Source of the DNA: Nitrosopumilus sp.
GTDB taxonomy: Archaea > Thermoproteota > Nitrososphaeria > Nitrososphaerales > Nitrosopumilaceae
Assembly: GCA_965214775.1 (NCBI GenBank)
Contig: OZ243974.1
Location: forward strand, 1,184,001 to 1,248,000
Length of the DNA stretch: 64,000 bases
Direction: 5' to 3'
Positions 3,001 to 42,105 of this stretch are shown one piece after another (the first letter of the stretch is position 1; every line of letters begins with the position of its first letter). The notes beneath the pieces are model-generated. The model searched no databases, had not been told where the DNA came from, and saw nothing but the letters and a program-made list of their open reading frames with translations. Both the position numbers and the translations under genes were made by a program.

Positions 3001-5538
3001 CAGCTCGGCCTTGTCGCCCTCCAGCGTGTCGACCTGCCTGCCCAGCTCGGCCTTGTCGCCCTCCAGCGTGTCGACCTGCCTGCCCAGCTCGGCCTTGTCG
3101 CCCTCCAGCGTGTCGACCTGCCTGCCCAGCTCGGCCTTGTCGCCCTCCAGCGTGTCGACCTGCCTGCCCAGCTCGGCCTTGTCGCCCTCCAGCGTGTCGA
3201 CCTGCCTGCCCAGCTCGGCCTTGTCGCCCTCCAGCGTGTCGACCTGCCTGCCCAGCTCGGCCTTGTCGCCCTCCAGCGTGTCGACCTGCCTGCCCAGCTC
3301 GGCCTTGTCGCCCTCCAGCGTGTCGACCTGCCTGCCCAGCTCGGCCTCCCTGTCTTGCAGCTTGGATGCCAGTGAGGAAGATTCTTCCGCTAGCCGAAAT
3401 GAAGAAAGCAGTGATTCGTAATAGTGCTTGTATTTTCTTAGTTTCACCTTGTGAGAATCCGTGGAATCATCTGAAATTGCCCATTCGAGGAGGCGTGTGT
3501 AATCTCCGTTCTTGACTTCCGGAAAGGCCTTCCGCAGATCCGGTCTCAAGCGGTATATTTTCAATAGTTCGTCTAGCTCGATCTTGTAGCTCTCCAGATC
3601 GATCCGGCTTGGCTGTTGATCAGATATACTGGCCTCTTCAACTCGCATTTTCTGCATCTGTGATCTGATAAATTCACTTGAATTTTCTTCATGTGTGTTT
3701 TTATAGCAAATTTGCAACAGATCAAGAGCAGCTGCGTCGGTTGTGATAATCAGCGAGAGCTCTAACCACACCATTGCATTTTCAAATTTGCCACTGTCCA
3801 TCAACACATTGCCCTGCAACAGGTATCTTGCGTGATCGCTTTTATCGTGTTCAATCATTCGATCTAAGATCTTGGAACACTCGTGGTATTCCTGCAAGTT
3901 ATACAGGCAGTTTGCACATCCCTCCAAGGCTGGAATGTATCCCCAATCTGTTTCAAGTATGCCCCTGTAAATTCTTAGTGCATCTGTCCACTTTGATGAC
4001 TCTGCCAGCTTGTCTGCGTTGTAAAGATCTAGCAACACTTGGTTCTTTGTTAGACAATACTTTGTAGTTATATGTTTATAGACAAAGTCCTTGTTTTTCT
4101 CCATCAGTATGCTGGAGTTGCGCGTCGAGCCCTGCGTGTTGATCCAGTATTCTCCAGTGGCTTTTGGAACTCGCACAAAATAGGCGTGCTTGGAAAACCT
4201 CCTTAGAACGTCCCAGTCCTCCCAAAAATCTAGTGCCTCATCATACCTCTCAACCTTGGACAGCTCCTTTCTGTGCACCACCGCAAAATTGGGTATGAAG
4301 TTGTCCTGATCTACTGGATCATATCTCGCATTCTTCAGCTTCTTCAGCTTCTTTTCGATCGGAATCTGCACCCCGTCCTCATTCACCATACAGTTGACTT
4401 GGACGTAATCCGCATATACGAGCATCCTAGACTCAAATCTGACAAGCTCCCCCACGGTAACCTCCAGATGATCCGGATACAGCCTGTCATCGTCATCTAG
4501 ATACGCAATGAGCTCGCCTCCAGCTGCTGTATCTATTGCATAGTTGTTGGCATAGGACTTGCCCCTGTGTTCTTCTAGCCTGATATACCTGATCCTAGGA
4601 TCCTCAAACCCGTCAATTATACCCTTGATGTCCCTTCCCCCATCATTGACTATAATCAACTCGAAATTCTCATACGTCTGCGACAATACCGACCTTATCG
4701 CAAGTGGGATTATGGATTCCCTGTCTCGTGTGGCCATTATTACAGAAACAAGCGGGCTTTTGGGCGGCTTGGACGGGACTTGGCCTCCGCCTCGTGGCAC
4801 CCACTTTCGCAGGAAATAGTCCTTGTTCTTCTGATCCACAAACGGTGATCTCAAGTCCGGATCCCCGGCGTGCGTAGGATCACCGGTATCGGTGCGGTAG
4901 ACAAAGACGTCCCTAGCAACCAGGATCGTCCCCCCAGCCTCCCGTATCCGCCTGCAATAGTCGTCATCATACAGCGGCCCGAAGCTGAATCCCTCGTCCA
5001 AGGGCCCTATGTCGGCTACAATCTTTGATCTTGCCACCATACAAAAGCCCCCGACCCGGTGGTATTTGGCCGTCAGACCCTCATACTTGGCGTGAAAGTC
5101 CCTGCCGTATTCGGCAATATGCACGGGATCGGATCCCACGCCGCACGAATAGTCGCACTGCATGACACCTGCCGAGTTGCTCATGGGCCCGACCGCCCCC
5201 GCATCCGGGTTGCCCTCAAGGTGTCCCACGAGCGTGTCCAGCCAGCCCGGGGTCACGATGACGCTGCTGTCCAGCCAGACGGCATACCTAGCGCGAATCT
5301 TTTCCAGTCCCTGATTCATGGCCCTTACGAACCCGGCGTCTTTTTTGTTTCTGATCAGTACCGAGCCGTCAAACCTTTTGAGGTACTGCAAGGTTCCGTC
5401 CGTCGAGCCGTTGTCTACGAATATGTACCTGTAGGATATGGCGCCTTTGCTTGCCTCTACGCTCTCGATACACCTTTTTGTGCCATCCAGATCGTTACGG
5501 GTCACGATGATGATGTCGCACGTAGACGGTGTGCTCAT
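1..5538 (-). CDS. Giant multi-domain glycosyltransferase (GT2-GT2-TPR-like-coiled coil-GT2-GT4-like-GT2), 3' end runs off the window
   Basis: ATG at 5538 gives MSTPSTCDIIIVTRND...FVDNGSTDGT. Further GT2 starts: LVSVIMATRDR...IIVNDGG, IVSIIILNHN, KVSIIIPTLNQ...GEYLVFL at base 1. GT4-like RILVIDGWITEHDKSGGDLR. Start and base-1 ends are in the same frame, and the ORF's absence from the track fits having no stop inside the window. Confidence 0.85.
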   Translation of the reverse strand, partial: MSTPSTCDIIIVTRNDLDGTKRCIESVEASKGAISYRYIFVDNGSTDGTLQYLKRFDGSVLIRNKKDAGFVRAMNQGLEKIRARYAVWLDSSVIVTPGWLDTLVGHLEGNPDAGAVGPMSNSAGVMQCDYSCGVGSDPVHIAEYGRDFHAKYEGLTAKYHRVGGFCMVARSKIVADIGPLDEGFSFGPLYDDDYCRRIREAGGTILVARDVFVYRTDTGDPTHAGDPDLRSPFVDQKNKDYFLRKWVPRGGGQVPSKPPKSPLVSVIMATRDRESIIPLAIRSVLSQTYENFELIIVNDGGRDIKGIIDGFEDPRIRYIRLEEHRGKSYANNYAIDTAAGGELIAYLDDDDRLYPDHLEVTVGELVRFESRMLVYADYVQVNCMVNEDGVQIPIEKKLKKLKNARYDPVDQDNFIPNFAVVHRKELSKVERYDEALDFWEDWDVLRRFSKHAYFVRVPKATGEYWINTQGSTRNSSILMEKNKDFVYKHITTKYCLTKNQVLLDLYNADKLAESSKWTDALRIYRGILETDWGYIPALEGCANCLYNLQEYHECSKILDRMIEHDKSDHARYLLQGNVLMDSGKFENAMVWLELSLIITTDAAALDLLQICYKNTHEENSSEFIRSQMQKMRVEEASISDQQPSRIDLESYKIELDELLKIYRLRPDLRKAFPEVKNGDYTRLLEWAISDDSTDSHKVKLRKYKHYYESLLSSFRLAEESSSLASKLQDREAELGRQVDTLEGDKAELGRQVDTLEGDKAELGRQVDTLEGDKAELGRQVDTLEGDKAELGRQVDTLEGDKAELGRQVDTLEGDKAELGRQVDTLEGDKAELGRQVDTLEGDKAELGRQVDTLEGDKAELGRQVDTLEGDKAELGRQVDTLEGDKAELGTMVKRLQAEVDAKNLRVLSLKEQITYKNSELAELQSKYNSLAYELEQINSSLIFSFLNGFTNSLDRTFKPNTRSGEFLRVMRSSLYITKTHGLKKLIEEFIAKKNKSSLTSVLTFKPVLIPKIEGSNVAEQFREELEYANTNSVLTFPKHDSPIVSIIILNHNKAAYTFNCLASVLHNTKIPYEIILINNGCTENASKLLLKQIKNTKSFDLKSNLGFIAGNNFASCHAVGKYLLFLNNDTLVLKNWLESLLDIFEHYEKVGIVGPKFLYPDGSLQEAGSIIWNDGSARAYGRNDDHLKPEYNFVRDVDYVSGACLLVKKSIFEKLGKFSEKYIPAYYEDVDLCFNAHKNSLRVMYTPFSSIVHYEGISSTRDPQNPSGTKRFEIINRPKFQKTWKEALSTKHIPSDSNVLLARDMRDSVRILVIDGWITEHDKSGGDLRVYNILKLLSQLNSKITLFVSHYGASEYNDGLRRLGIEIIPAQNFDVSVLLEDRKNYYDLIVINTNRMSSVQCKQYLHQSKTTSPQTKILLHIDDLYGFCRLVSQDKNIQVDDDQKALDTLTKFGRDFTNISDHLMVITQREINLLQKIVPSEKLLLLPDIRHLNTRPVKKFNERKYLLFVGGFSHTPNVVSAKKIIDDVFPLILKKMPAIEMYFVGNDPPKELTKMENSNIHFSGFVKDLFPYYDGAVATIAYMMVVGGIKGKILESLNFNVPVITTPLGLAGTELKSKKDVLVASNEEEFADAVFTLLDDENLWLRLSQNGKTYFDRYHSLKVGEKILNGFLQSLSCNSSGSRSSDMGFATLEQPSPPPSLDVATNILSERVRRYSETIKLDDPKLNSRIFCNEYPAEPDEDLREHIQIGSAEILTLPRNPKVSIIIPTLNQTDYLRKNLESIESKTTYKNYEIIIVTNNKDGDSEMRRYLDGIRHKVLIYDGEYSFAKINNHASKSARGEYLVFL
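2873..3346. repeat. 42-bp tandem repeat, 11 full copies plus a partial, encoding (LEGDKAELGRQVDT)n on the minus strand
   Basis: Unit cccagctcggccttgtcgccctccagcgtgtcgacctgcctg, read directly; 14 aa = two heptads. Confidence 0.97.
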
Positions 5539-5582
5539 ATCAATGAAAAAAGGCTCCACGTATTAATAACATACTGCATGCC

Positions 5583-5703
5583 CAGTCTTCCCAGAAGTAC
5601 CGCATAAAATCATCCCGGGCCAGAAACAATTCAGATGAGGATGCCTGCAGATCTGCATGTCACCTACTGCACTGCCGTGAGTCGGTTACTTCTGGGAAGA
5701 CTG
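5583..5703. mobile_element. MITE family A (TIR CAGTCTTCCCAGAAGTA, ISH3-like ends)
   Basis: Terminal inverted repeats. Related copies at 14529-14650, 20599-20720 (5-bp TSD AAGAC), ~23996, 48159-49360 (interrupted) and 49366-49484. Confidence 0.75.
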
Positions 5704-5747
5704 ACTATTACAGTCTAATATATATTGATATTTTTGGAAGCTCTGTT

Positions 5748-6524
5748 GTGCCCAACCTATTTTCAGATCTAATTCGTCAACGAACAATCGTATTTTCATT
5801 GGCTATTACTGATGTAAAATTGCGATACAAAAATTCGGCTCTGGGGTTTTTCTGGACATTTCTAGAACCTGTATTGATGCTAGGAATACTCTATGTTGTA
5901 TTTAGCAATATTTTGCGAAGTGAGATTGAACACTACCCGATGTACTTGCTGATCGGGCTGGTATTTTGGTATATGTTTTCAAGAGCTACAACTGCTGGAA
6001 TGACAAGCTTGCAAGACAAATCGTTTATAATCCAAAAAACATCTTTACGTCGTGAAATTATTGTTATTAGTTCTACGCTTACCGCTTTCATAATGATGAT
6101 GTTTGAACTGTTGGCGTTTGGTGTATTTGTAATAATTTTTCAATTTGTTCCGCCATTAACAATATCGTTCTTGCCTATTTTACTACTGGAGATACTCGTT
6201 TTATCTCTAGGCATAGCGTTCATCCTCTCTATTCTTAATGTTTATTTTAGAGATATTCGCTTTATTTGGCAAGTGATTCTTCAGGCGTCTTTCTTTCTTT
6301 CTCCCATAATCTATACACTTGACATGTTTCCTGAAACCATTCGTGGCATATTGGAAATTAACCCCTTCGTCCACATGTTAAACATAACTCATAGTTTAGT
6401 ACTGTATGGAACAACGCCCGAATTAAATTCCTTGTTTTACCTGATATCCACCACTGGAGCTCTGCTGGTGTTTGGATACTATTTATTTAAATCAAAAGGG
6501 AAAAAAATTGCGGAGAAAATATAA
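5748..6524 (+). CDS. wzm: ABC-2 polysaccharide exporter permease (Wzm/RfbA-like)
   Basis: DVKLRYKNSALGFFWTFLEP and FFLSPIIY...INPF motifs; multi-pass hydrophobic. Confidence 0.9.
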   Translation: MPNLFSDLIRQRTIVFSLAITDVKLRYKNSALGFFWTFLEPVLMLGILYVVFSNILRSEIEHYPMYLLIGLVFWYMFSRATTAGMTSLQDKSFIIQKTSLRREIIVISSTLTAFIMMMFELLAFGVFVIIFQFVPPLTISFLPILLLEILVLSLGIAFILSILNVYFRDIRFIWQVILQASFFLSPIIYTLDMFPETIRGILEINPFVHMLNITHSLVLYGTTPELNSLFYLISTTGALLVFGYYLFKSKGKKIAEKI

Positions 6525-30019: not shown

Positions 30020-30054
30020 GATCCATAAAAAGGCAGTATGTATTTAATTGGTAC

Positions 30055-30136
30055 GAGTTTACCCCTTAGCCGCCATTGCTGTCTGGAGCCTTTATGATCA
30101 CGCCTGCTGCGCCGTATATCGGAGAGGGGTAAACTC
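30055..30136. mobile_element. MITE family D (GAGTTTACCCC...GGGGTAAACTC)
   Basis: Related copies at ~13556-13640 and 61391-61473. Confidence 0.7.
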
Positions 30137-30183
30137 TTGCAATCAGTACATGCCGGAATCAGAACCGCCACGGTTATGTATTG

Positions 30184-30201
30184 TGGACCCCCCGGGATCC
30201 G
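30184..30201 (-). other. Putative attR carrying the displaced tRNA 3' end
   Basis: Minus strand CGGATCCCGG-GGGGTCC-A; shares the core CCCCCGGGA with 42407-42415 and pairs fully with the tRNA 5' GGGCCCC. Confidence 0.6.
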
Positions 30202-30235
30202 TCACAATATTGTACCTTTTATGCGTTCCAGGAAC

Positions 30236-31513
30236 ATGGAGATCAAGATGAAGCTTACGATGGAGGAATTTGAAAGGGTGGAACAGGCGGCCCCGCTTGT
30301 CCTGTTCAACCAGGGGATCAAGGCGGAGATGACGCGCGAAAAGTACACCCGCACGCTACGCCAGGTGCTCTGCGGCATGCTAGAGGACATACTGGAGGGA
30401 GACCTTGAGGGACGCGCAGAGCAGCTGGTACAGCACGGCCGGGAGGATCCGGCATGGGTGCGCGACCTGCTGCTGAGCCTCTCGCGCAAGCTGCTCGAGC
30501 GGACCAGGCTTGCCCCCGACAATCCAGAGTATCTCAGACCGGTCTCGTTTGGCGGGTATTTCAAGCCGGTCAAGAAGCTGCTGGATATGAACGACGTCGT
30601 GATCCCGTGGAAGCGCATATACGCCACGTTTCCCGAAGAGACCGGCCTCCCGTCGTCCTCCCGCGGATGGACGCGTGCCGAGGTACAGAAGATGCTCAGG
30701 TTCTGCCGGGGGCCGCTTGAGCGGGCAATCATACTGGTGGCCGCAAGCTCCGGGATCAGGATAGGGGGTTTTGAGGAACTCGAGTGGAGGGATCTCGTCC
30801 CCGTGTACAGGATGCCGGACGGCACACTTGAGATGGGGGATGCAGCAGACGGCAGGGAGATGGACGGCGCAGGGAACCCGGCCTGCGCAAAGCTGCAGAT
30901 ATACCGCGGATCCGGCGAGAGCTATCCGGCCTTCATCACGCCGGAGGCGTATGCGGCGCTTGACGACTATCGTGCAGAGTGTGCCGACAGGATTGGACGA
31001 AAGCTGCTCCCCGGCGATCCCCTGTTTATCGGATCCGGCTGCCTCCCGAGAAGGCTGTCGGTAGTCATGATAAAAAAGCACATACTCGACGTGCTGACAA
31101 GGTCGGGTCTCCGCGGCAGGCCCGGCCCCGACGGCAGCAGAAGCAGCAAGACGCGCAGACACGACGTCCCGATGACCAACGGGTTCAGGCGGTTCTGGAA
31201 CAAGACGTGCAAGGAGGCCTCCTCCCGGGAATCCCCGCTGTCCAGCCTGATCAAAAAGGAGTACATGATGGGCCACTCCGGGCTGGTAAAGCTTGACCGC
31301 AACTACTTCAAGACCCACACGCTGGAGCTTGCCGAAGAGTACCTCCAGGTGGTGCCGGCCCTCACCCTGGATGACGCGGCAAGGCTGCGCATGGAAAACG
31401 ACCTGCAGGCGCAGAGGATAGCGAGTCTGGAGGACGAAAAGGGCGCAGAGATTGCCGACCTGCGCCTCATGGTAGAGCAGCTTGCAAAAAGGATAGGGCC
31501 AGACGTGAAATAG
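30236..31513 (+). CDS. Tyrosine recombinase/integrase
   Basis: SSGIRIG (R), NGFRRFW, MMGH, DRNY catalytic motifs; C-terminal coiled coil; start uncertain (30137/30236/30248). Confidence 0.9.
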   Translation: MEIKMKLTMEEFERVEQAAPLVLFNQGIKAEMTREKYTRTLRQVLCGMLEDILEGDLEGRAEQLVQHGREDPAWVRDLLLSLSRKLLERTRLAPDNPEYLRPVSFGGYFKPVKKLLDMNDVVIPWKRIYATFPEETGLPSSSRGWTRAEVQKMLRFCRGPLERAIILVAASSGIRIGGFEELEWRDLVPVYRMPDGTLEMGDAADGREMDGAGNPACAKLQIYRGSGESYPAFITPEAYAALDDYRAECADRIGRKLLPGDPLFIGSGCLPRRLSVVMIKKHILDVLTRSGLRGRPGPDGSRSSKTRRHDVPMTNGFRRFWNKTCKEASSRESPLSSLIKKEYMMGHSGLVKLDRNYFKTHTLELAEEYLQVVPALTLDDAARLRMENDLQAQRIASLEDEKGAEIADLRLMVEQLAKRIGPDVK

Positions 31514-32130
31514 GGCCCTTTTATGGTACCCGCGTCTTGTGTGCATGAACGGTAACAACAGGTGTCCTGTCTGCAAGGATGACCTAGACAGGCACACGGA
31601 CAGGGACCTGGCAACGTGCGCGTACCGCATGATCTCGGACTGACTGGCATCCATACATGCTGGCTCCCGTTTTTACTACACTTACTTTGCCCGTGCTCTG
31701 TATGAGGTATACGACTTTGATCGGCTGGTGGGCGTGTATGAAGGAGCCAATTTCTGCTGCAAGGCTTTGGGCGTGGCTGAAAACCAGGGCGGCCTGACCG
31801 GCCATCCTTCAGGCATTCTGTCTTGCCGCATAGTCTTGCCTGAAGTTTGAAATTTGGCAAAAAATCACCAGGATGATCAGCGGATCCCCGGCCAGGAGGG
31901 CCAAGGATCGTTGGTGGTGGGAGATTGCCCCTGGATGGCATTGCCTGCCGGGGTCTTGATGATCATGTCCTCACATTGCATCCTAGGGAGGGGGCAAGCT
32001 CTTGCCTTGGCGATCCCCCCCGTGATGTCTGCATTTATCCTGTCTGAGTTCTCCTCGGGCAGGCAGCAGTGGGGATTTTCCTAAAGCGTCAGAGGCCGAG
32101 CCGGATGACCGCAATGCAACACCGCAATCG

Positions 32131-32209
32131 TCCCTGTTACTGGCAACAGTTGCCCACTAGCGGGAACTTTTCTTCCCTGTTACTGGCAACAGTTGCCCAC
32201 TAGCGGGAA
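32131..32209. repeat. 36-bp direct repeat, two copies, with internal hairpins
   Basis: tccctgttactggcaacagttgcccactagcgggaa at 32131 and 32174. Confidence 0.9.
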
Positions 32210-32346
32210 TCAGTAGAACGCCTGTGTCTGAAGACACGGCAAAACGCCACGTTTTGACGATCATCTGATCCAGAGCAGTGAGCAGGGCACAAAGATCCAT
32301 GGGGAGCCAAACAAGAATGAGAAAAAAGATGGGGTATGTGCAATCG

Positions 32347-32564
32347 TCATTTGATCTCCGGCCTCGAGAGCGGATCAAAGCCGGGATCATCAAAGGGATT
32401 GTCGTGTCTGGGCCTGGTGTCAGCACAATTTTGCCGCCAAGGTCGTGGAACCGTATGTGCTCGCCTGGTCTCAAACCCAGGCTTTGTACCATCACGGGCG
32501 GAACGACCGCAAAAAATGAAGAGTTGTCCTTGATGCTGAGCCTTCACTCATGTATCTTTTCCAT
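32347..32564 (-). pseudogene. AbrB/MazE/SpoVT-like DNA-binding protein pseudogene
   Basis: MEKIHE*RLSIKDNSSFFAVVPPVMVQSLGLRPGEHIRF...; in-frame TGA and a probable frameshift; similar to 33391-33684. Confidence 0.65.
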
Positions 32565-32599
32565 GCCATCAGCAAATACCGGAGATTCGTTTAAGACTG

Positions 32600-32696
32600 T
32601 GGTGCCAATGGCGCCAAAAAACGGCGCCAAAGGTGCGTTTGGTACCTATCCCACAGGGGCCAAAGGCGCCAAAAAACGGCGCCAAAGGCCCCAATC
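32600..32696. repeat. Degenerate 9-bp GGCGCCAAA repeat cluster
   Basis: ggcgccaaaaaacggcgccaaagg occurs twice, plus variants. Confidence 0.8.
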
Positions 32697-33033
32697 TCTG
32701 AGGGCCAGTAACGGACTTTCAACTCGCATTAATACACAAAACACGAAAAACGAGACCATGACGTCCGGGTCCCCTGACCCCGACAGTCCCATGGGACGAC
32801 GGAGTCGTCCCAGACCCTAGAACCTACCTGGGTGAAGAACTTCCCCGGACTCCATCGAACCCGGCGACCGTCCCCGGATCGACGAGACAAAATCATACCT
32901 ACGAACCTAGAATCATTACAGTCAGCCACAGATGACTGATCAGAACCTCATAATGGTGTCATGTCAGGAGGCAGTACCAGAATGTCAAAAACATGACGGG
33001 AATCAAGAACATGAAAAACAGAGCTTGTCAATT

Positions 33034-33138
33034 CTGAGGGCACTGGCTATTTCCCTATCTATCCTGTCATATCATATCATACATCTCAGAATCCTTTGAA
33101 CCTTTTGATCATCAAAAACCTACAATTTTTAATCATTC
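33034..33138. promoter_or_regulatory. Conserved non-coding block, copy 1 (oriT/ori-like, function inferred)
   Basis: 24-bp identity gctatttccctatctatcctgtca with 36001-36024, plus flanking similarity. Confidence 0.5.
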
Positions 33139-33390
33139 ATTGACTGCCATCGGATCAATCCGAGGAGATTGCCTTCCCGAGGACATGACGGGCCTTGTCG
33201 CCTGTGGCTACAGGATGCCCGACAGGCAGAGTCCGCAGCCCCGGATAAAGCCGTCCCGGGCATGTCAGGCACGGCATGACAAAGTGGGAAAACTTGGCTT
33301 AGCAGTGTCACGCGTGGTCAGGTAACCCAAAGGTCCGCGAGATTCTCGCCGGCCTTGAAAAAAAAGAAAGGCGGGGTGTAACGGCAGGCG

Positions 33391-33684
33391 TCATTTGATG
33401 TGCAGCTTTTTGAGCTTTTCTGCAGGCAGATCCGCCTCTTCCATCATCTCGTCCAGGACCCTGTCGTACTTGGTCTTGCTGCCTTTCTTTGAGGAAGTGC
33501 GCTGGGTCTGTATGGGGATCAGCTCCATCCGATCCTCAAAATTCACAAACTCGACGAGCTGGCCGCTTTCGATACCGTGGGCATCCACCATGCTCTTTGG
33601 GATGACGACGATGGTGCTGCTCCCGTATCTGTACGCCCTTCTGTACTGCTTTTTTTCTGTCATGCTCTTGAATCTGTTTTTCAT
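33391..33684 (-). CDS. AbrB/MazE/SpoVT-family DNA-binding protein
   Basis: YGSSTIVVIPKSMVDAHGIESGQLVEF swapped-hairpin signature. Confidence 0.8.
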   Translation of the reverse strand: MKNRFKSMTEKKQYRRAYRYGSSTIVVIPKSMVDAHGIESGQLVEFVNFEDRMELIPIQTQRTSSKKGSKTKYDRVLDEMMEEADLPAEKLKKLHIK

Positions 33685-34310
33685 TTAAAACCAGTCTAAT
33701 TTCATGATTCTTGCCATTTTCATAATTTTTGGTATCGTTGTTTTCACTACTCTCACTACTTTTCAAATCCATACTTTCACTACTCTCACTACTTTTCAAA
33801 TCCATACTTTCACTACTCTCACTACTTTTCAAATCCATACTTTCACTACTCTCACTACTTTTCAAATCCATACTTTCACTACTCTCACTACTTTTCAAAT
33901 CCATACTTTCACTACTCTCACTACTTTTCAAATCCATACTTTCACTACTCTCACTACTTTTCAAATCCATACTTTCACTACTCTCACTACTTTTCAAATC
34001 CATACTTTCACTACTCTCACTACTTTTCAAATCCATACTTTCACTACTCTCACTACTTTTCAAATCCATACTTTCACTACTCTCACTACTTTTCAAATCC
34101 ATACTTTCACTACTCTCACTACTTTTCAAATCCATACTTTCACTACTCTCACTACTTTTCAAATCCATACTTTCACTACTCTCACTACTTTTCAAATCCA
34201 TACTTTCACTACTCTCACTACTTTTCAAATCCATACTTTCACTACTCTCACTACTTTTCAAATCCATACTTTCACTACTCTCACTACTTTTCAAATCCAT
34301 ACTTTCACTA

Positions 34311-35416
34311 TAGCAACGGTCATAAGTAATTGAGGGCTTTGACCGGCGATCTGTAAATGTACTTGTACATGCTAAGGTGGGCAAACGACACCGTCCTGTA
34401 ATATTCGGATATGGCATGCCGTAGCTCGCTGATTTTCCTGTACACTATCCCCCTGAAAACAAAATGCTTGCCCAAGTTCCAGCATTCTTCCACGATATTG
34501 AGGTACGGCGATCCTTTCGGGATCATTATCAGTTTGACATAGGGATGGTCGACCAGATATTCTGCGACATCAGTAGATCTGTGCACACTCCACCTGTCGC
34601 AAAAGACGGCAACCTTACCAAACTTGGCGCGCAGCGCCTCCAGACATTCTATGAACTGCACCGACGTAAAGGATCCCGTAAACGTCCTGAACAACCTTCT
34701 GCCGTCTTCTGCGATGCTTCCAAACACGGCCACCTTTGTGTGGTCTCCAGAGTACGATGCCACGCTTCTGGTGCCGACCGGACCCCACACGTATCTGTCA
34801 TATGCGCCCTGCACGAAGAACGCCTCATCAGATGACACCAGCGTAAAACCGTCGTTTTTCAGGCACGGAATACGCACGTTTTCAAGATACCACTGCCACG
34901 AGTATACCGAGCTTGGGGTGGCATGGTTGACATGTATGTTTTGCACCTTGCGGCGCGACAGGCCATGCTGGCGCATCATTCTCCGGACATGCTCTATGCT
35001 GTATTGTGTCCCGGTGGCATCCCTTATGTCATCGCGTACCGTCATGACATCGGTACTTTTGCATGCAGTAGACAGATCCATTATGGCTGCAATACTTTTC
35101 CTGTCCACCTTTGGCCTGCATCCGGAACGGGGAAGATCCCGGAGACCGTCTATGCCGCCCTCCGAAAACCTCGCCAGCCAGTTACGCACGGAATTCTCAC
35201 TGCACCGGATCTTTCTTGCAGTCTCGGGTACGCCCATGTCGTCTTCTAGCACAAACATCAGCGCCATGATCTTCTTGTAGACTTTGGCATCCTTTTCTTT
35301 GCGCATGGCCTCTGACAGGATGTCTGTTTCTTTTGCCATACATACTGCGCCAGTTACGTGATCATTATACTTTTCGAATGACCTTGTTTTGGCTCAAAGA
35401 CTTATGCTCGTTGCTA
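34311..35416 (-). mobile_element. IS630-family element C, TA duplication
   Basis: TIR TAGCAACG..CATAAGT; the repeat unit is restored when the element is removed. Confidence 0.95.
34320..35339 (-). CDS. IS630 transposase
   Basis: HTH, SDEA, CDRWSVH, PKGSPYLNIVEECW. Confidence 0.92.
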   Translation of the reverse strand: MAKETDILSEAMRKEKDAKVYKKIMALMFVLEDDMGVPETARKIRCSENSVRNWLARFSEGGIDGLRDLPRSGCRPKVDRKSIAAIMDLSTACKSTDVMTVRDDIRDATGTQYSIEHVRRMMRQHGLSRRKVQNIHVNHATPSSVYSWQWYLENVRIPCLKNDGFTLVSSDEAFFVQGAYDRYVWGPVGTRSVASYSGDHTKVAVFGSIAEDGRRLFRTFTGSFTSVQFIECLEALRAKFGKVAVFCDRWSVHRSTDVAEYLVDHPYVKLIMIPKGSPYLNIVEECWNLGKHFVFRGIVYRKISELRHAISEYYRTVSFAHLSMYKYIYRSPVKALNYL

Positions 35417-35987
35417 TACTCTCACTACTTTTCAAATCCATACTTTCACTACTCTCACTACTTTTCAAATCCATACTTTCACTACTCTCACTACTTTTCA
35501 AATCCATACTTTCACTACTCTCACTACTTTTCAAATCCATACTTTCACTACTCTCACTACTTTTCAAATCCATACTTTCACTACTCTCACTACTTTTCAA
35601 ATCCATACTTTCACTACTCTCACTACTTTTCAAATCCATACTTTCACTACTCTCACTACTTTTCAAATCCATACTTTCACTACTCTCACTACTTTTCAAA
35701 TCCATACTTTCACTATTTTTTGCCCTATGGTTTCCACTCCCACACGCATCAAACCTCTCGCATTACACCACACAGTCACAAAAAACGAGACCAAAGCACA
35801 CCGAATCATTCCGACGGAACGGTCTCCCCACGGGAGCCCTTAGCATCCCCTCCTTGATCTGGGACATATTCATCGTCCCAGAAACTCTACGACAATTGAG
35901 GGAGTCCTCCCCTCAAACTCCTCAACACACCGGTGACTCAAATTATCAGGAATCATGACAGGAGTCAAATGACATAACACAAGAATG

Positions 35988-36094
35988 TCTGAGGGTATTA
36001 GCTATTTCCCTATCTATCCTGTCACGATATACAGTACGTCTCGGAATCTTTTGAACTTTTTGCCCCTCAAGATTCATGATATTTTTAATCATTC
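35988..36094. promoter_or_regulatory. Conserved non-coding block, copy 2
   Basis: Homologous to 33034-33138. Confidence 0.5.
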
Positions 36095-36629
36095 TTTGGT
36101 TATCGTCAGATCATTTGAGAATATTATCCTCTAGGTTCCGTAATATGACATTGATCGACACAATCATGGTTTTTTCTGATGATAACTGGCGATATTGTAT
36201 CATGTCGGTTTGTCTTGGATTCGAGAAAAAAATAGCTCATCCGTTCCAGATGTCTCTTCTCCCCATCCTTGAGTTTAAGACACGCCAAGACTTTTGCTGT
36301 AATCGCCGCCCTCATTTTGATTATCCACCTTCATATCTAAAAGCCGTTTCCGGAGCCAAATTTTTTGATTTGGAGTCATGAAAAAATAATCCGACTCTCA
36401 GTAACCTTGTCATGTTTTCTGATGGTATCTTTTGCCTCAGAATGATTCCTGGAATTTTTTGGATTTTCATTATTTTTCACGCACGGATATGCCTTCCGAG
36501 CTATGGAAAAAAGTGCAAGATGCCCGCCGGATTCAGGACGCCTGAAAAGGGAGGCAAATCTGTTGAAAGTAATGGTGCATGGCAGGCAGTGCCAATACAG
36601 CGTGTTTGGTTTGAGACAGGCCTGACACC

Positions 36630-36764
36630 GAGACTGTCGTCTAATTCATAAGAATTGCTGAAAATCATACGGTGTCGTCTGGACTAGACGTGCAAAGGGA
36701 GTGGAAATTCGGAGAAATGTGCAGGTTGAGTCAAGCAAGGGGAACTACGTGACGACCCCCCCCC
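36630..36764. mobile_element. MITE family C (GGGGTTGTCGCCTAATTC ends), degenerate
   Basis: Related copies at ~47601, 56845-56976 and 58652-58783. Confidence 0.65.
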
Positions 36765-37025
36765 TCCACTGCGACGGGTTCATCGGGTTCTGCAACGAGT
36801 GCAGGACGTATTATTCGCTGGATATTGGGTGCGCCGGGATGCCCACGACGGCGCAGAGCCGGGATGCCGCAGATGCGATCAGGAAAAATGGCCCAAAATG
36901 GACGGAGATGGACACCAATGACTAGCGAGCATGATTTTCATATAACACAATGTCTGGCCAGCAAGAGCGTAATCTCACACACTACGCGGCGGCAGCCTTT
37001 TTAACTACATGCCTGTAGAGCTGCC

Positions 37026-37964
37026 ATGATTAGACGCTTTTCCGTAGGACTCTTTCTTGTTCTGGCTGTAGTGGCCCTTACTGCCACCGCGCACGCAGAG
37101 GTGCCGCCCCCACTAAAGCAGCTTGCGGCAGGCGTCTCTCCAGAGGACATCCGGTGCAACCACGACAGGATCCTTGTGATGCGTGACGGCGGCTCCCCTG
37201 CGTGTGTGTATGCCGAGACGGCGCAAAAAAAGGACTGGCGTACGGTAAACACAGCAAGCACGGCACCGTCAGCTACCGATTACGGCGAAGTCCACGAGGC
37301 CGTCATAAACTCGATTCGGATGGGGGATGTAGGGGAGCCGGTAATCCTCAACGTGACCATGATCAACCACACCCCGGATGGTTCGTGGTCCTCCCATGGG
37401 GAGTTCGTCGACAAGAACTTTTCGCTGAGAATAGGGGTGCCGGACTCTTTTGAGGTGGACGAGTCCCAGGAATACTTTGGAGGAATGAGGGGTGTAGACT
37501 CGTGGCCTCCAAATTATGTGGTATATTTCGGGATCGACGAGAGCGCCGACAGGCTTGACATGGAAAACCTGACATTCATCCCCACCGAGGCCGGCACATA
37601 CTGGATGAACATACAAAACAAGACTGCGACTGATAGGGTCGGGCACTACTACATATGGTTTGCAATCGACGAGTCGGGCTCGTACTGGTCATACGACGAA
37701 CCCCCGAAGCCGGCGGCCCCTCCTGAGCCCCCTACCCCAAAGAGGGACTCGCCCACCATGACTGCCGTGCAGCTTACAGACTCCGAGGTAAGGGAGTTTC
37801 TGCAAAAGCTGTCCGCAAGACACGGCACGGAGGTCACCCTTGACAATGTGCCGCAGTACATCTCCGAGGACGACGACGTCTACCTTATGAAGAGCGCCGA
37901 GAAGGTAAACGACAGGTGGGAGGATATACTGCTGTTCTTCAGGGACGTGCCATATCGTGGATAG
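37026..37964 (+). CDS. Secreted/surface protein with a Nitrosopumilaceae-type N-terminal motif
   Basis: Signal peptide, then PPLKQLAAGVSPEDIRC...SPACV. Confidence 0.8.
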   Translation: MIRRFSVGLFLVLAVVALTATAHAEVPPPLKQLAAGVSPEDIRCNHDRILVMRDGGSPACVYAETAQKKDWRTVNTASTAPSATDYGEVHEAVINSIRMGDVGEPVILNVTMINHTPDGSWSSHGEFVDKNFSLRIGVPDSFEVDESQEYFGGMRGVDSWPPNYVVYFGIDESADRLDMENLTFIPTEAGTYWMNIQNKTATDRVGHYYIWFAIDESGSYWSYDEPPKPAAPPEPPTPKRDSPTMTAVQLTDSEVREFLQKLSARHGTEVTLDNVPQYISEDDDVYLMKSAEKVNDRWEDILLFFRDVPYRG

Positions 37965-40900
37965 GTGGCCGGGTTTCTTCGCCATCCTGCTGGCAGTTCC
38001 TCTTGGCGGCCACGCCCTTGCAACCGACACGTTTGACACAATGGGCCTTGTGAACATAGAAGATGTCAGGGGGGACGGATATTCATACACCGAGCTCATC
38101 TTTGACGCCCAAGTGTGCCTCAAGATATTCGGAAGCTCCTCTTACCTGCAGTTTGCAGGCGAAAACAGAGACGCCTGCACGCACATAACCGGCAGCAGCT
38201 GGTACTCCCTGTCCGACGTCGAGCTGCCAGACAACCCCACAAGGGTGCAGTATGTTCTAGTGACAAACGGGGAGCAGATGGACGTTCGGGACAGCAACAA
38301 CGACTACCACAAGATCGCCGATCCAGTCACGGAACTAATCTATTCCGGCTATAGACTCAATCACAACATAGTGGTGCCCTCTGAACCGAGCAATGCGCTG
38401 TGGCTTTATCATGACTGGATGACCTTCACCAGATTTGTCGAAAGTGAGTTTGGCAAGACGATGGATCTTGGTTTGACCGTCATGTATGAAGAGGGCGAGT
38501 TTCCTGGAAGCAACTACAAAGGTAGAAACAGGGTAGTCACTCTTCAGGGTGAAGGACTACATGAACCTCATGATAATGCCATTGATGACCAATGGATAGT
38601 ACTACATGAATTCTCTCACCATCTGATGAACGAGGCATACGATGATCACTTTTCAACCTACAAAAGTTATCCTCATGCCTGCGTCGATGAAAACTCGCAG
38701 ACCATTGACCATTACATCCACAAGGCAAGCAACGGCAAATGCGCGTTTTCAGAGGGATTCGCCAACATGATGCCTCATCTAATCCTGGATGAAACCGTAA
38801 TAGAAGTAAAAACCTCCGACTATACGTTTGACATAGAAACCCCGGAATATATGGAAGGCAACGTGGTGATGGACATCGCGGAGGGCGTCGCTGTAGAAGG
38901 CAGGGTGGCTGCCGCCTTTTTTGATCTGCTGGATCTGGGAAACGGCAACGACGAGCGCGTTACGGAGGACAAGGGCGACTTTTGGGAGGTCACCGAAGTC
39001 TTCCAGCTAGGCATCGCGCCCGTTGTCGGCGACTTTTATGAGAACTGGAAGGATCGGCACGGATACGACAGTAGGCTGGACAGTATCTACGAGCTAAACA
39101 CGTTGTCTGCCGTCCTGAGAAGCAGAGACGTGATCGAGGTAGAGGATCCGGTCGTCTCACCCTCCGGCATCGTCCTGAGTTGGGACGCGCCCGCTACCGG
39201 CCCTCCACCTGAGTTTTACGAGATCCTGAGATCCTCGTCACCGTTCGTGTCCATTGCAAACGTCACCTCCACCACATACGTGGACGGCGACGTCCTGCCG
39301 TCGACCACCTACCGGTACCAGATCATCCCCCACTCCAACTACGGGCCAGGCACGCCTTCGCTGGCCGTCAATGCAACCACGGCCGACACAGTGTCACTGG
39401 CAATAACCGCGCCGCCGGACGTTACGGTGGAGGCCACAGGAGTCCTGAGCACCGTCAGTATAGGGACTGCCACGATAACCGGTGGTCAGGATCCTGGTAC
39501 GACGATAACAAACGATGCCCCCGTCTCTGGGTTCCCGGTAGGCAACACCACGGTAACGTGGACCGTGACTGACACCTTGAACATGACGGCCACCGACATC
39601 CAGACAGTGACGATACGGGACACGGCGCCGCCCCGGATCGCCGTACCGGCAGACATCACGACCGAGGCTTCTGGTGTGCTGACTATGGTATCCATCGGAC
39701 AGGCCACTGCCACCGACATTGCGGATCCGGATCCGGCAGTAACAAACGACGCACCGGAATCGTTCCCGCTCGGCGATACGGTAATCACATGGACTGCCAT
39801 TGATTCCTCCGGCAACGCGGCCACTGACATCCAGACTGTTACGATACAGGACACGACACTGCCGAGCATAACCGCACCGCCAGATGTCACAACCGAGGCT
39901 TCCGGCGTACTGACTGTAACATCCATAGGGCAGGCCACCGCCATCGACACTGCAGATCCCGACCCGGCAATCACAAACGACGCCCCCGAGTCGTTCCCGC
40001 TCGGCGATACAGTAATCACATGGACTGCCACTGATTCTTCCGGCAATGCTGCCACGGCCACACAGACCGTGACGATACAGGACACCACGCCGCCGAGCAT
40101 CACCGCACCTGCAAACCATACGGCCGAGGCAGCCGGCATCATGACGATCCTGAATGTCGGCGACTATGGGACTCCCACCGTATCTGACATTGCCGATCCC
40201 AGTCCCACAATCACAAACGACGCACCAGAGTCGTTCCCGCTCGGCAACACCACGGTAACGTGGACTGCCGCCGATTCCTCTGGCAACGAGGCGACGGCCG
40301 CCCAGACTGTTACAATACAGGACACCACGCCGCCTGCCATCTCCGGCCTGCGCAATATATCCGTGGATGATCCGGCGGGCCGTGGAATGGAAGTCAGCTA
40401 CGATGCGCCGACTGCCGCCGACCTCGTGGACGGGGTCGTGGCAGTATCATGCACGCACGAGTCCGGATCGACGTTTGCGCCCGGATTCACCGAGGTGTCA
40501 TGCACGGCGACAGACGGCTCTGCAAACTCGCAGAGGGACTGGTTTATCATACACGTGGACGCCTCAGACGCCATCCTGGACGTCTTCCAGACCGTGAGCA
40601 CGGGCCGGTCCACGTGGAGTGTTACGGGCCCGGACAGGGTATTCGCGGGGCAGACCTTCGAGTATACGGTAACCCTCGAGGACGGGGCGAGGCCGAGGCT
40701 GGAGTCGCTTGCCGTGTACAGCACGGCGCCGGAACGGGACCTCGGATGGTACGATCCCGATACGGACTGTCAGACCGTGATATGCGCGGGGTTTCCCGAA
40801 CAAAAGCACGACACGTACAAGATAGCCAGTGACGAGGACTCGCCGTATACTGCCATGCACAACAAGATGAAAAAGTCCAGATCCAGCCATACCATACTGC

Positions 40901-42105
40901 TGCAGCCGGCAGCCGACGCGCCGGCGGGCACACAGGCCACAGTCGGCATGATGGACGGTAACAACAACCAGGTGGGAGGCATACCCGTGACGGTGCTGCC
41001 GCCGTCCGCAAAGACGATAACGGGCGAGCGCGCCACCTGGAGGATCACGGGCCCCGACAGGATATTTCCGGGACAAACCTTCGAGTATACGGTAACCCTT
41101 GATGGCACAAGGCACCAGCACGACGCCCTTGCAATATACAGCAGCTCGCTTACAGTGGACGACTTTGGGGGACTCGCGGATGACTCTGCATGCGGCACGA
41201 CCGTATGCACGGACTTTCCGGGGCAGCGGCGCCGCACGATGGAGCTTGACAACCACGCAGGCTCGGTATACGACGTGAGGTATCACACGATCAACGCGCC
41301 CGGCTCCCAGTATACGATACTGCTGAGGACGGCCGACGACGCGGAGGCGGGAGGCACGTTCAGGGTCGGCCTGGTGGACGGGGACGGAAGTCCGATGGGC
41401 AGCATACGGGTTACGATCGCCGATCCCGTGGCCGTAACGGCCCCATATGAGGAGCTCGTGGCAGGCCTGTCCTTTGAGGGCAGCCTGGCCGATATCACGG
41501 GGGACAACAACGGTACGGCTGCAGGGGATGTCACGTACGTGCCTGGCAGGATAGGCAGGGGGCTGCAGCTTGACGGCTCTACGAACGTCACCCTTGCAGG
41601 GGAGGCCGACTTTGACTTTGGGCGGACCGACCCGTTCAGCATTGCGTTCTGGCTCAGGCAGGACGTGCCCGTCAACAACAGCACCATGATAATGTCCAAG
41701 GTAGAGTCGTTCGGTCATACCGGCTCGTACGTGTGGATATGGGGAGGGGCGCCCAACAGGATCCTGCTTTCGATACACGACAACTCCACGTTCATAAACG
41801 TGCACACCCCCAACCACCTGAACATGTCAGACGGTGCATGGCACCATATCGCATTCACGTACGACGGCTCGGGTGTAAAGGAGGGCCTGAACGCGTATAT
41901 CGACGGCGAGCACCGGGACTATGACGGCTACCGTAGGGGCCTAGGACTGGAAGGCAATACAACAAACGACCATGCGTTTACGGTGAGAACCACCAGCTGG
42001 GGGGACCCCGACAGGATCGACTCGGTGCTCGACGAGTTGCGCGTGTATGGCGCCGAGCTGTCGGCCTGGCAGATGCGGTTGCTGCATGCGGCAGGCCTCG
42101 ACTAG
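37957..42105 (+). CDS. Large secreted HExxH metalloprotease-like protein with FN3, HYR-like repeats, a duplicated unknown domain and LamG
   Basis: LHEFSHH...FSEGFA; LSWDAP...Y.Y.I; about five TNDAPESFPLGDTVITWTA-type repeats; DGAWHHIAFTYDG. Confidence 0.85.
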   Translation: MDRWPGFFAILLAVPLGGHALATDTFDTMGLVNIEDVRGDGYSYTELIFDAQVCLKIFGSSSYLQFAGENRDACTHITGSSWYSLSDVELPDNPTRVQYVLVTNGEQMDVRDSNNDYHKIADPVTELIYSGYRLNHNIVVPSEPSNALWLYHDWMTFTRFVESEFGKTMDLGLTVMYEEGEFPGSNYKGRNRVVTLQGEGLHEPHDNAIDDQWIVLHEFSHHLMNEAYDDHFSTYKSYPHACVDENSQTIDHYIHKASNGKCAFSEGFANMMPHLILDETVIEVKTSDYTFDIETPEYMEGNVVMDIAEGVAVEGRVAAAFFDLLDLGNGNDERVTEDKGDFWEVTEVFQLGIAPVVGDFYENWKDRHGYDSRLDSIYELNTLSAVLRSRDVIEVEDPVVSPSGIVLSWDAPATGPPPEFYEILRSSSPFVSIANVTSTTYVDGDVLPSTTYRYQIIPHSNYGPGTPSLAVNATTADTVSLAITAPPDVTVEATGVLSTVSIGTATITGGQDPGTTITNDAPVSGFPVGNTTVTWTVTDTLNMTATDIQTVTIRDTAPPRIAVPADITTEASGVLTMVSIGQATATDIADPDPAVTNDAPESFPLGDTVITWTAIDSSGNAATDIQTVTIQDTTLPSITAPPDVTTEASGVLTVTSIGQATAIDTADPDPAITNDAPESFPLGDTVITWTATDSSGNAATATQTVTIQDTTPPSITAPANHTAEAAGIMTILNVGDYGTPTVSDIADPSPTITNDAPESFPLGNTTVTWTAADSSGNEATAAQTVTIQDTTPPAISGLRNISVDDPAGRGMEVSYDAPTAADLVDGVVAVSCTHESGSTFAPGFTEVSCTATDGSANSQRDWFIIHVDASDAILDVFQTVSTGRSTWSVTGPDRVFAGQTFEYTVTLEDGARPRLESLAVYSTAPERDLGWYDPDTDCQTVICAGFPEQKHDTYKIASDEDSPYTAMHNKMKKSRSSHTILLQPAADAPAGTQATVGMMDGNNNQVGGIPVTVLPPSAKTITGERATWRITGPDRIFPGQTFEYTVTLDGTRHQHDALAIYSSSLTVDDFGGLADDSACGTTVCTDFPGQRRRTMELDNHAGSVYDVRYHTINAPGSQYTILLRTADDAEAGGTFRVGLVDGDGSPMGSIRVTIADPVAVTAPYEELVAGLSFEGSLADITGDNNGTAAGDVTYVPGRIGRGLQLDGSTNVTLAGEADFDFGRTDPFSIAFWLRQDVPVNNSTMIMSKVESFGHTGSYVWIWGGAPNRILLSIHDNSTFINVHTPNHLNMSDGAWHHIAFTYDGSGVKEGLNAYIDGEHRDYDGYRRGLGLEGNTTNDHAFTVRTTSWGDPDRIDSVLDELRVYGAELSAWQMRLLHAAGLD

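Follow-up and report, generated by a model that had tools for sequence, protein, structure and literature searches.

Two diverged copies of a single unit are stacked between 32.3 and 36.1 kb of the window, a 64,000-nt stretch of Nitrosopumilus sp. contig OZ243974.1 (positions 1,184,001–1,248,000; source genome G000, 2.83 Mb). The unit runs in the order 3′ relic of a VirD4-like coupling-protein gene, AbrB-like gene, repeats, motif plus spacer, and conserved block. Sequence comparison gives good support for regarding these units as the VirD4-proximal end of integrative and conjugative elements (ICEs) of ammonia-oxidising archaea (AOA), because each unit starts with a VirD4 relic and because 13 of 13 close VirD4 loci carry an AbrB gene. 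It is likewise well supported that in the window such ICE-end units are stacked in a mobile, non-conjugative integrase island, in which two units and the stump of a third (unit 0) stand beside a tyrosine integrase gene. A first-pass annotation, made from the letters of the sequence, had described the succession of AbrB gene, repeats, motif and block as occurring twice in paralogous form, and all of these items are present. The parts of the two units are as follows:

32347–32564, minus strand: AbrB1 pseudogene, an AbrB N-terminal domain fused, in a different reading frame, to the unit-0 AbrB 3′ end
32601–32688, no strand: unit 1 repeats of the GGCGCCAAA type, a 55-nt super-unit present twice, directly upstream of AbrB1
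32723–32758, plus strand: unit 1 promoter-like motif (CTCGCATTA..CACGAAAAACGAGACCA), with a putative promoter role
32759–32991, plus strand: hairpin-rich spacer 1 (e.g., TGGGACG-N7-CGTCCCA at 32792–32812)
32992–33157, plus strand: block 1, with its 5′ arm at 32992–33001, a 36-mer at 33034–33069 (containing a 24-mer that starts at 33046) and its 3′ arm at 33062–33071, followed by a T-rich doubled AATCYTTTG and then a TTTTG-N5-CAAAA hairpin
33249–33395, plus strand: VirD4-like relic, last ~50 codons (tblastn), its stop overlapping the AbrB2 stop (CGTCATTTGAT)
33391–33684, minus strand: AbrB2, intact, 97 aa (PF04014, E 3.2e-8)
33742–34310, no strand: left part of the unit 2 repeat array, 17.2 copies of a 33-mer with 100% matches (Tandem Repeats Finder, TRF)
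34311–35416, minus strand: IS630-like insertion (transposase at 34320–35339) that splits the 33-mer array
35417–35715, no strand: right part of the unit 2 repeat array, 9.1 copies with 100% matches
35757–35793, plus strand: unit 2 promoter-like motif
35794–35953, plus strand: hairpin-rich spacer 2 (TCTGGGAC-N9-GTCCCAGA at 35858–35882)
35954–36113, plus strand: block 2, with its 5′ arm at 35954–35963, the 36-mer at 35989–36024 and its 3′ arm at 36017–36026

Each unit starts with the decayed 3′ remnant of a gene for a VirD4-like coupling protein. In the window, the final ~50 VirD4 residues are encoded at 33249–33395 on the plus strand (tblastn searches with six VirD4 C-termini gave E 1e-7 to 2e-11), so that what looks like a GC-rich spacer separating block 1 from AbrB2 is a piece of a decayed coupling-protein gene. 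An open reading frame (ORF) after AbrB2, 'ORF86', was rejected as an out-of-frame reading of this relic. In intact ICEs the AbrB and VirD4 genes lie tail-to-tail with their stop codons overlapping by 4–5 nt; the 11-mer CGTCATTTGAT, which stands at both AbrB 3′ ends in the window (also at 32345), is this AbrB/VirD4 stop overlap. At locus C of the same genome (610–611.6 kb), a full unit directly follows an 860–877-aa VirD4/TrwB-like gene (PF10412, 24.8–25.9 bits against a cut-off of 20.5), in a cluster that also encodes a VirB4-like ATPase (TraG P-loop, E 1e-16) and TadC-like, prepilin-peptidase and ParM-like proteins. Locus C is thus an ICE of the type known from Thaumarchaeota (PMC6563490).

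VirD4 homologues were identified in 51 of 401 genomes of the class, and a convergent AbrB homologue is present at all 13 distinct VirD4 loci that have at least 68% identity and room downstream. These comprise nine fetched loci (L095–L103) and four copies (two in G357, one each in G066 and G250); a partial copy in G227 (L114) constitutes a fourteenth case. Tandem repeats upstream of the convergent AbrB gene were detected by TRF at the five loci scanned and by eye at the others inspected. PF04014 scored over its cut-off in the ICE copies L098, L103, L106 and L112, and under it in the remainder. Six of ten more distant VirD4 loci (40–60% identity) have a convergent ORF of 71–110 aa with 9- or 18-bp tandem repeats just upstream; four of the nine such ORFs scanned match PF04014 (two over the cut-off), and the repeat sequence is different at every locus. 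In this distant ICE group (L105–L112), a TTGTGCCTRAAAT-like motif lies ~100 nt upstream of the AbrB-like ORFs, the position held by the CTCGCATTA..ACGAAAAACGAGACC motif in the window's group. VirD4 is present in 12 of the 13 genomes that carry the AbrB family, against 51 of 401 overall; these genomes are kin, which inflates the figure, and we therefore claim no statistics for the co-occurrence.

The first-pass annotation had taken the AbrB-like gene of unit 1 for a pseudogene and that of unit 2 for intact, and PF04014 bears this out: AbrB2 scores 33.8 bits against a cut-off of 24.7, and the AbrB1 remnant 20.9 bits (E 3.6e-4), under the cut-off. The remnant reads MEKIHE*RLSIKDNSSFF...IVLTPG, with TGA at codon 7, and beyond ..LTPG it continues, in another frame, as the terminal part of a third AbrB gene (..DNPFDDPGFDPLSRPEIK*) that is still separate at two sister loci (A and B). 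AbrB1 is a true pseudogene, produced when two units were joined by the loss of roughly 0.9 kb. No RNA dataset was listed for window positions 32200–33740. Contigs from four sequencing runs of unrecorded kind (one study) represent the same organism, and their unitigs break at paralogous repeats; the joint 32196→32336 in those read contigs is the layout of loci A and B, and bears on neither expression nor excision. The intact AbrB1 orthologues at these two loci are ~102 aa long and share 95% identity. All AbrB2 copies are intact, with orthologue identities of 89% (locus A), 54% (locus B) and 45% (locus C, where AbrB scores 28.6 bits with PF04014), and it matched only six proteins at E ≤ 1e-3 in a set of 5.8 billion. 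The family, which a profile recovered in 13 of the 401 genomes, has a conserved C-terminal LEKLRIK tail and a TKKD linker, both family-specific.

Each AbrB type has a different repeat directly upstream of its own promoter, as had been proposed at first pass under the notion that each AbrB has its own iterons. The AbrB2 genes of the window and locus A have 33-mers with TTTCACTAC sub-repeats, AbrB2 of locus B a related 33/32-mer, the AbrB genes of locus C and G250a an unrelated 32-mer (5.8 copies), AbrB1 the GGCGCCAAA 55-mer, and the G250g AbrB gene a 22-mer. In unit 1, 33-nt copies at 32601–32633 and 32656–32688 are 94% alike at a spacing of 55, and the 55-mer is present in 2.5 copies upstream of AbrB1 at locus A. 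Two details of the initial description of the repeats needed revision: the unit 2 tracts are present, but as one array of ~26 units split by the insertion sequence (IS) rather than as two 33-mer tracts, and the 9-bp periodicity holds locally, TRF giving period 9 for 32651–32673 alone (2.6 copies). An AbrB1-like gene in G227, integrase-proximal at one locus, has 33-mer repeats containing GCGCCAAAAGCGCC, which echoes GGCGCCAAA of the window; GCGCCAAA-type repeats are thus kept with AbrB1-like genes in two genomes despite 36% identity between the proteins. The motif AAAAACGAGACCA is shared by both units, as first reported (within 32742–32758 and 35777–35793, 94% alike); the promoter-like motif is conserved in six of ten aligned modules, and in the G357 ICE it occupies the same place and orientation beside the repeats. 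The insertion in the array is an IS630-like element with a 339-aa DDE_3 transposase (E 9.5e-21), 26-nt terminal inverted repeats and a TA duplication, of a family with ~21–24 copies in the G000 genome.

The 24 identical bases noted at 33046 and 36001 were confirmed, and the block of ~105 nt assigned to them is real but longer, at 160–166 nt; the two blocks align at 33033–33115/35988–36070 (80%) and 33125–33157/36081–36113 (79%). Each block consists of a 10-nt arm (CATGACRGGA) and ~55 nt ending in an invariant 36-mer, the last bases of which form the complementary arm (TCCTGTCA); 3′ of the 36-mer are a variable stretch of ~20 nt, the doubled AATCYTTTG, the TTTTG-N5-CAAAA hairpin and a AATTTTTAAT stretch. 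Across units the block is 140–190 bp long, with a closing inverted repeat of 8–10 bp. The 36-mer is nearly invariant in 18 copies, and its flanks are 67% identical or unalignable. With up to five mismatches allowed, the 24-mer has exactly eight sites in the G000 genome, all with zero or one mismatch, and it was found in six of 401 genomes of the family (eight copies in G000, seven in G250, one each in G066, G422, G036 and G357); the reversed 24-mer, as a control, gave no match in the 401 genomes. A BLAST-type search of the 401 class genomes recovered the block in seven. In a collection of species-representative genomes a 19-mer matched 26 loci, with the extended core only in four AOA metagenome-assembled genome records; the remaining loci fit chance (by our own estimate, 18 specified bases should occur ~35 times in 596 Gb). 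A viral contig collection gave one match, which lacked the extended core (chance), and a metagenome contig collection gave none with two patterns. In the survey by 24-mer suggested at first pass, the block was met also solo and, in one case, inverted.

Three other identities for the block were rejected, the first two of which had been named at the outset as findings that would undermine the proposal. No reading frame is open across 17 copies (median 14–51 codons, minimum 0–24), which argues against a decayed coding sequence, and the block is present in eight copies per genome with an internal inverted repeat, against 20–70 copies for repeats nearby that resemble miniature inverted-repeat transposable elements (MITEs). 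An attachment (att) site for tandem elements was likewise rejected, since a third copy is lacking to the left of the integrase gene and cargo follows the block.

The units are stackable, as had been claimed: stacked pairs occur at three G000 loci, and also in G250, G227 (three loci) and G343 (two). From 30203, within the integrase gene, to ~36750, the window is 84–92% identical to locus A (576.8–584.0 kb of G000); the unit part recurs at locus B (2474.8–2479.7 kb), loci A and B having three units each, and single units lie at locus C and at locus D (1596–1598.4 kb). The further components of the island in the window are these:

30137–31513, plus strand: tyrosine-integrase-like gene, 458 aa by the longest start (418 aa in the locus A orthologue), matching phrog_1 'integrase' at E 9e-6 over residues 175–310
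32128–32209, no strand: two direct repeats of 39–43 nt with internal (nested) palindromes (GGCAACAGTTGCC), 97% alike at a spacing of 43, between the integrase gene and unit 1
36114–36620, plus strand: a non-coding 'right arm' common to loci A, C (ICE) and D at 72–77% identity, in which no conserved ORF was seen
37026–42105, plus strand: probable cargo, a 312-aa ORF and a 1382-aa HYR/LamG protein (Pfam)

The window integrase, which had no match in Pfam, NCBIfam or PDB sequences, has a 91% identical orthologue at locus A and a 55% identical one beside stacked units in G227; the integrase of locus B is of a second type, with likeness at motif level only. Three G227 loci mirror the window in the order repeats–AbrB, broken VirD4 relic, 33-mer repeats–AbrB, integrase, and their integrases differ from each other (one 55% identical to that of the window, one 45% to that of locus B, one distant). 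A standalone nuclease ORF considered for the G227 units was discarded, its frames being broken. At locus A, an additional 352-aa HNH-endonuclease ORF lies between the integrase gene and the units (L078:5253–6311), and is absent from the window. The palindromic direct repeats at 32128–32209 also occur at locus B and near the G250g block, and may be recombinase or regulator sites.

Mobility is indicated by the island at locus B (island B; G000:C1:2473241–2489631), which is 99.94–99.96% identical over 15.3 kb to a segment of G250, a member of another genus (C2, 3206070–3190739), with no similarity outside the segment and a single difference in content, a 1.04-kb IS in G000 alone. The element class has thus moved recently between genera. 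An integrase-like gene lies 78 bp in from the start of island B, which further contains the unit stack, an IS, a serpin gene and a gene for an 1828-aa subtilase/HYR/LamG protein, and which is flanked by an ~11-bp direct repeat that is perfect in G250 and matches at 8 of 11 positions in G000. Its att core (GTGTCAGG) is one base from a block arm (GTGACAGG), a likeness that we set aside as post hoc, and which had no counterpart at loci D and A or at W (the window island). No conjugation genes were identified among the ORFs and Pfam matches of island B or of window positions 30–42 kb; the genes present encode only integrase, AbrB, IS, serpin or unknown, and HYR/LamG proteins. The serpin and 1828-aa protein genes occupy the same position in island B as the 312-aa ORF and the 1382-aa HYR/LamG gene in the window; on this comparison the window island probably includes the latter two, up to 42105. 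Its left homology limit is near 30203; a flanking direct repeat was not found for it, and an empty site was not found in 20 relatives, in which the flanking genes are not syntenic.

We tentatively propose, by analogy, that the units constitute a relaxase-independent recognition cassette resembling the Streptomyces cis-acting locus clt or an origin of transfer (oriT), marked by AbrB, recognised by VirD4 and mobilised in trans; we hold this to be plausible, if somewhat short of probable. An AbrB dimer or tetramer would coat its own private repeats, thereby autoregulating its gene and building a nucleoprotein mark beside the cis-acting block. The VirD4 ATPase of a resident ICE, which in intact ICEs is predicted to carry a C-terminal winged-helix-like segment and a restriction-endonuclease-like domain, would recognise this mark and pump or process the excised island. 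The cassette could then act as a clt/oriT equivalent that needs no relaxase, and stacked units of different specificity would let an island ride different ICEs. With respect to the C-terminus, the last 250 aa of VirD4 (L096, L097, L098, L099 and L101) gave weak MarR-like matches (E 0.002–0.05). In an AlphaFold2 model of this part, residues 135–250 have a pLDDT of 59–92 in ten-residue blocks, and their best structural matches are almost all of the restriction-endonuclease fold (AF1548, Z 8.1; PaqCI, 7.7; NucS, 7.6; Can2; Hjc), which makes the domain a candidate for a DNA-processing activity. A more far-reaching version, which we consider unlikely, is that relaxase-free archaeal conjugation has its missing DNA-recognition locus in the VirD4–AbrB–iteron unit: AbrB would sit on private 9-bp-periodic iterons and its LEKLRIK tail would pass the DNA to the ATPase, whose C-terminal winged-helix and restriction-endonuclease-like domain would open or cut at or near the block, and islands would collect units as 'tickets' for export by ICEs of different specificity.

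Several points weigh against the proposed recognition cassette. The mechanism, comprising AbrB binding, contact with VirD4 and any processing or cut, is one that we infer from sequence, and the structural matches of the VirD4 C-terminus (Z 5–8.1) lie in a range that can reflect a common arrangement. Repeats that abut the AbrB promoter are equally expected of a plain autoregulated repressor, and the AbrB1 gene of the window is a pseudogene. The only VirD4-like gene of G000 (L095/L086, G000:C1:612045–614624) encodes 877 aa, against ~1050 aa in relatives, the C-terminal winged-helix/nuclease-like part having been lost to a frame change; the resident ICE may therefore be defective. The VirD4 relics are decayed and no working helper is visible in G000, and the transfer of island B may have been by virus, vesicle or transformation. 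The block is not general, being present in only 6 of the 401 family genomes; it also stands solo beside host genes (e.g., a proteasome gene), and its orientation to AbrB, spacer and motif is reversed in the G357 ICE. A block profile matched one of six VirD4-downstream regions scanned, the block also being present beside VirD4 at locus C, and it gave no match (E ≤ 1) at any of the three stacked loci of G227.

The first alternative to this cassette is a regulatory, incompatibility or partition module, in which AbrB would be an autoregulated repressor or centromere-binding protein and the repeats its operator or centromere. The units would have diversified against cross-talk between co-resident elements, and the block would be an independent adjoining element, for example a terminator or insulator. 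We regard this as unlikely, but as a serious contender. It would account for the repeats lying directly upstream of a TATA-like box 25–30 nt before each AbrB start, and for AbrB–repeat pairs being exchanged like alleles within conserved flanks (identity between locus B and the window is 54% for AbrB2, and between loci A and B 95% for AbrB1); the ICE at locus C also encodes a ParM/actin-like protein. However, a regulator gene convergent at the 3′ end of a coupling gene, with overlapping stops, is unusual, and the ICE already has a small ORF beside its ParM-like gene. Moreover, the islands retain two or three units with no target operon, and have no ParA or ParM gene.

The closing inverted repeat of the block bears on a second alternative, namely that the block, or spacer plus block, is the gene of a structured non-coding RNA (ncRNA). 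Transcription would start at the CTCGCATTA..ACGAAAAACGAGACC motif, or at a TATA-like stretch preceding the 5′ arm, and stop at the T-runs. Its architecture is gene-like (a promoter-like motif, hairpins, a closing stem with compensatory changes, T-rich runs on the plus strand), and an RNA gene could also stand solo, as the block does. The inverted repeat also speaks, with the nearly invariant 36-mer, for a functional cis element and so for the proposed cassette: 93.5% of its cells are paired, three of its ten pairs show double (compensatory) changes, and overall pairing reaches 94.0%, against 92.4 ± 0.4 in shuffles (1 of 500) and 46–56% when the arms are slid. The loop varies by up to 17 nt in length while the arms are kept, and a stem therefore fits better than a protein site of fixed spacing. 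In the covariation check advised at first pass, the score of the named structure beats all but 13 of 500 shuffles, with double changes at only three pairs; covariation is weak overall. Several results argue against an RNA gene, which we think improbable: Rfam gave no match at E ≤ 1; for a wider fold of the block, the RNAalifold covariation term is +0.12 kcal/mol with a double change in 1 of 41 pairs; wobble-compatible variants are about equally frequent on both strands (our own count); and the block is inverted relative to the motif in G357.

A third alternative, that the units are genomic fossils, would explain the extent of decay. The islands would be ICE deletion derivatives with functionless units, the blocks being kept alike by gene conversion. 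VirD4 is present as relics, AbrB1 and AbrB0 are pseudogenes, an IS lies inside the repeat array, the VirD4 gene of G000 is shortened, and in the unit-0 blocks at loci A and B an internal deletion has removed the core and joined the left half of the block to a VirD4 relic. Against this, the integrase–unit–relic–unit order has been maintained alongside three different integrases and AbrB pairs of only 30–36% identity, the 36-mer is kept in other genomes beyond the reach of conversion, island B moved recently, and AbrB2 is intact in all copies. We consider it quite improbable that the units are fossils.

The first-pass annotation had favoured an origin of transfer, and the link to conjugation stands, by way of the VirD4-like gene. 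Its reading of the block as a nick site of the MOB-P/RP4/T-DNA type, by contrast, is unsupported. Both window blocks contain CTATCCTGTCA, a YATCCTG-type string (a string match only), and ATCCTG is kept in 17 of 18 block copies. As in the RP4 nic and T-DNA border, ..TATCCTG.. lies in the most conserved part, and the minus strand is one base from the border 13-mer (a comparison made in the first-pass annotation). The relaxase families PF03432 and PF08751 were absent from the five module-bearing genomes searched, in a search that detected its positive controls and covered neither MOB-V nor MOB-T families, and none of 11 unassigned ORFs of the neighbouring ICE gave a relaxase-like NCBIfam match. 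The absence of relaxase and Rep genes noted for the island itself holds on ORF and Pfam scanning, and a recommended look elsewhere in the genome yielded the VirB4-like ATPase of locus C, but no relaxase. In the text of a 2019 survey, relaxases are not reported for thaumarchaeal ICEs, which may move double-stranded DNA, and relaxase and oriT are given as unfound for both Sulfolobus plasmids and thaumarchaeal ICEs (Krupovic et al., 2019; PMC6563490). Thus, because no relaxase was found in genomes, ICE ORFs or that survey, a classical nick-site oriT appears unlikely, and a relaxase-free analogue seems more plausible. Specifically, a MOB-P oriT nicked at TATCCTG|T within the block is highly improbable: the likeness is a short, post hoc one between different domains of life, and the motif lies inside the 3′ arm of the inverted repeat rather than beside it, a geometry other than that of RP4.

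It is hardly credible that the AbrB genes are orphan MazE/VapB-like antitoxins with their operators: PF04014 'MazE_antitoxin' is their sole Pfam family match, but no toxin ORF stands beside any of more than 20 copies, the neighbour always being VirD4 or its relic, and the LEKLRIK tail and TKKD linker are particular to this family. An integron or CRISPR reading was set aside on anatomy, each unit having its own promoter and the repeats having no spacers.

Some observations concern the surroundings of the blocks and of the island. Directly after the inverted block of the G357 ICE are HNH-endonuclease, DndB and DndC-like genes (L089:1–3425). Beyond the block at locus C are a 517-aa short-Argonaute-like ORF (NCBIfam E 9e-9, far under the cut-off) and a Schlafen/AlbA_2 ORF (L080:2815–4368 and 4352–5833), with an AIPR abortive-infection-like gene nearby; these look like defence cargo of the ICE. 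Three short high-copy repeats flank the window island (30050–30135, 36630–36755 and 36860–36950, with ~70, 20 and 50 genomic copies); they belong to different repeat families, which rules them out as halves of one MITE. The 1382-aa protein (37957–42105) is secreted-looking, with four HYR repeats and a LamG-like domain, and a signal-peptide region paralogous to its own is encoded at seven other places in the genome.

For the recognition step by which archaeal conjugative elements would select and process exported DNA, the unit gives a concrete and testable candidate, because it sits on the 3′ end of the coupling gene and has been copied into non-conjugative islands, one of which crossed a genus boundary. 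The pairing of AbrB type with repeat type constitutes a natural allelic series suited to binding tests. The 'cryptic' integrase islands of ammonia oxidisers are thereby reclassified as potentially mobilizable, and attention is drawn to a nuclease-like domain of the coupling protein. If the units are merely autoregulated repressors, the result would be a modest annotation of ICE backbones.

Among known systems, TraM of the F plasmid is a relaxosome accessory protein with multiple oriT-proximal sites that contacts the coupling protein TraD. The proposed role of AbrB resembles that of TraM in that a small DNA-binding protein is encoded beside the transfer origin, with several repeats overlapping its own promoter, is allele-specific, and would link DNA to the coupling ATPase; unlike TraM, AbrB has a swapped-hairpin fold, there is no relaxase, and the contact with VirD4 is only putative. 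In Streptomyces plasmids and actinomycete ICEs (AICEs), the clt repeats are located at the 3′ end of the translocase gene. The AICEs of Streptomyces, the closest parallel that has been worked out, also transfer without a relaxase: their translocase TraB recognises clt as a double-stranded cis-acting locus, and according to the text of PMC3429521, elements carrying clt-like sequences could plausibly be mobilised in trans. The present units differ in that the ATPase is VirD4/TrwB-like in a VirB4-type system, whereas TraB is FtsK-like, and in having a separate AbrB-fold protein for each repeat array and an additional conserved block, both known here from sequence.

The thaumarchaeal ICEs described by Krupovic et al. 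(2019; PMC6563490) have a VirB4 and VirD4 cluster, prepilin peptidase, TadC-like protein and no relaxase, as does locus C, and the 'cryptic integrated elements' of the same study are, like the present islands, small and integrase-only with short direct repeats. The terms 'AbrB' and 'oriT' do not occur in the main text of that study, in which the VirD4–AbrB–repeat module and the block are not described; as far as the literature was searched, neither has been reported, and the islands may be listed by coordinates in its supplementary tables. Integrative mobilizable elements and mobilizable genomic islands that mimic the oriT of an ICE, as presented in PMC5704250 and PMC3429521, share with the present islands an integrase of their own, short att repeats (candidate repeats in island B), cargo, a lack of mating machinery, a cis site derived from the conjugative helper (putative in the islands), and signs of recent horizontal spread (island B). 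In contrast to these elements, the present islands have an archaeal host and a putative helper of a class for which neither relaxase nor oriT is known, and their cis region would be a stack of AbrB–repeat units, each with its own relic of a VirD4 gene.

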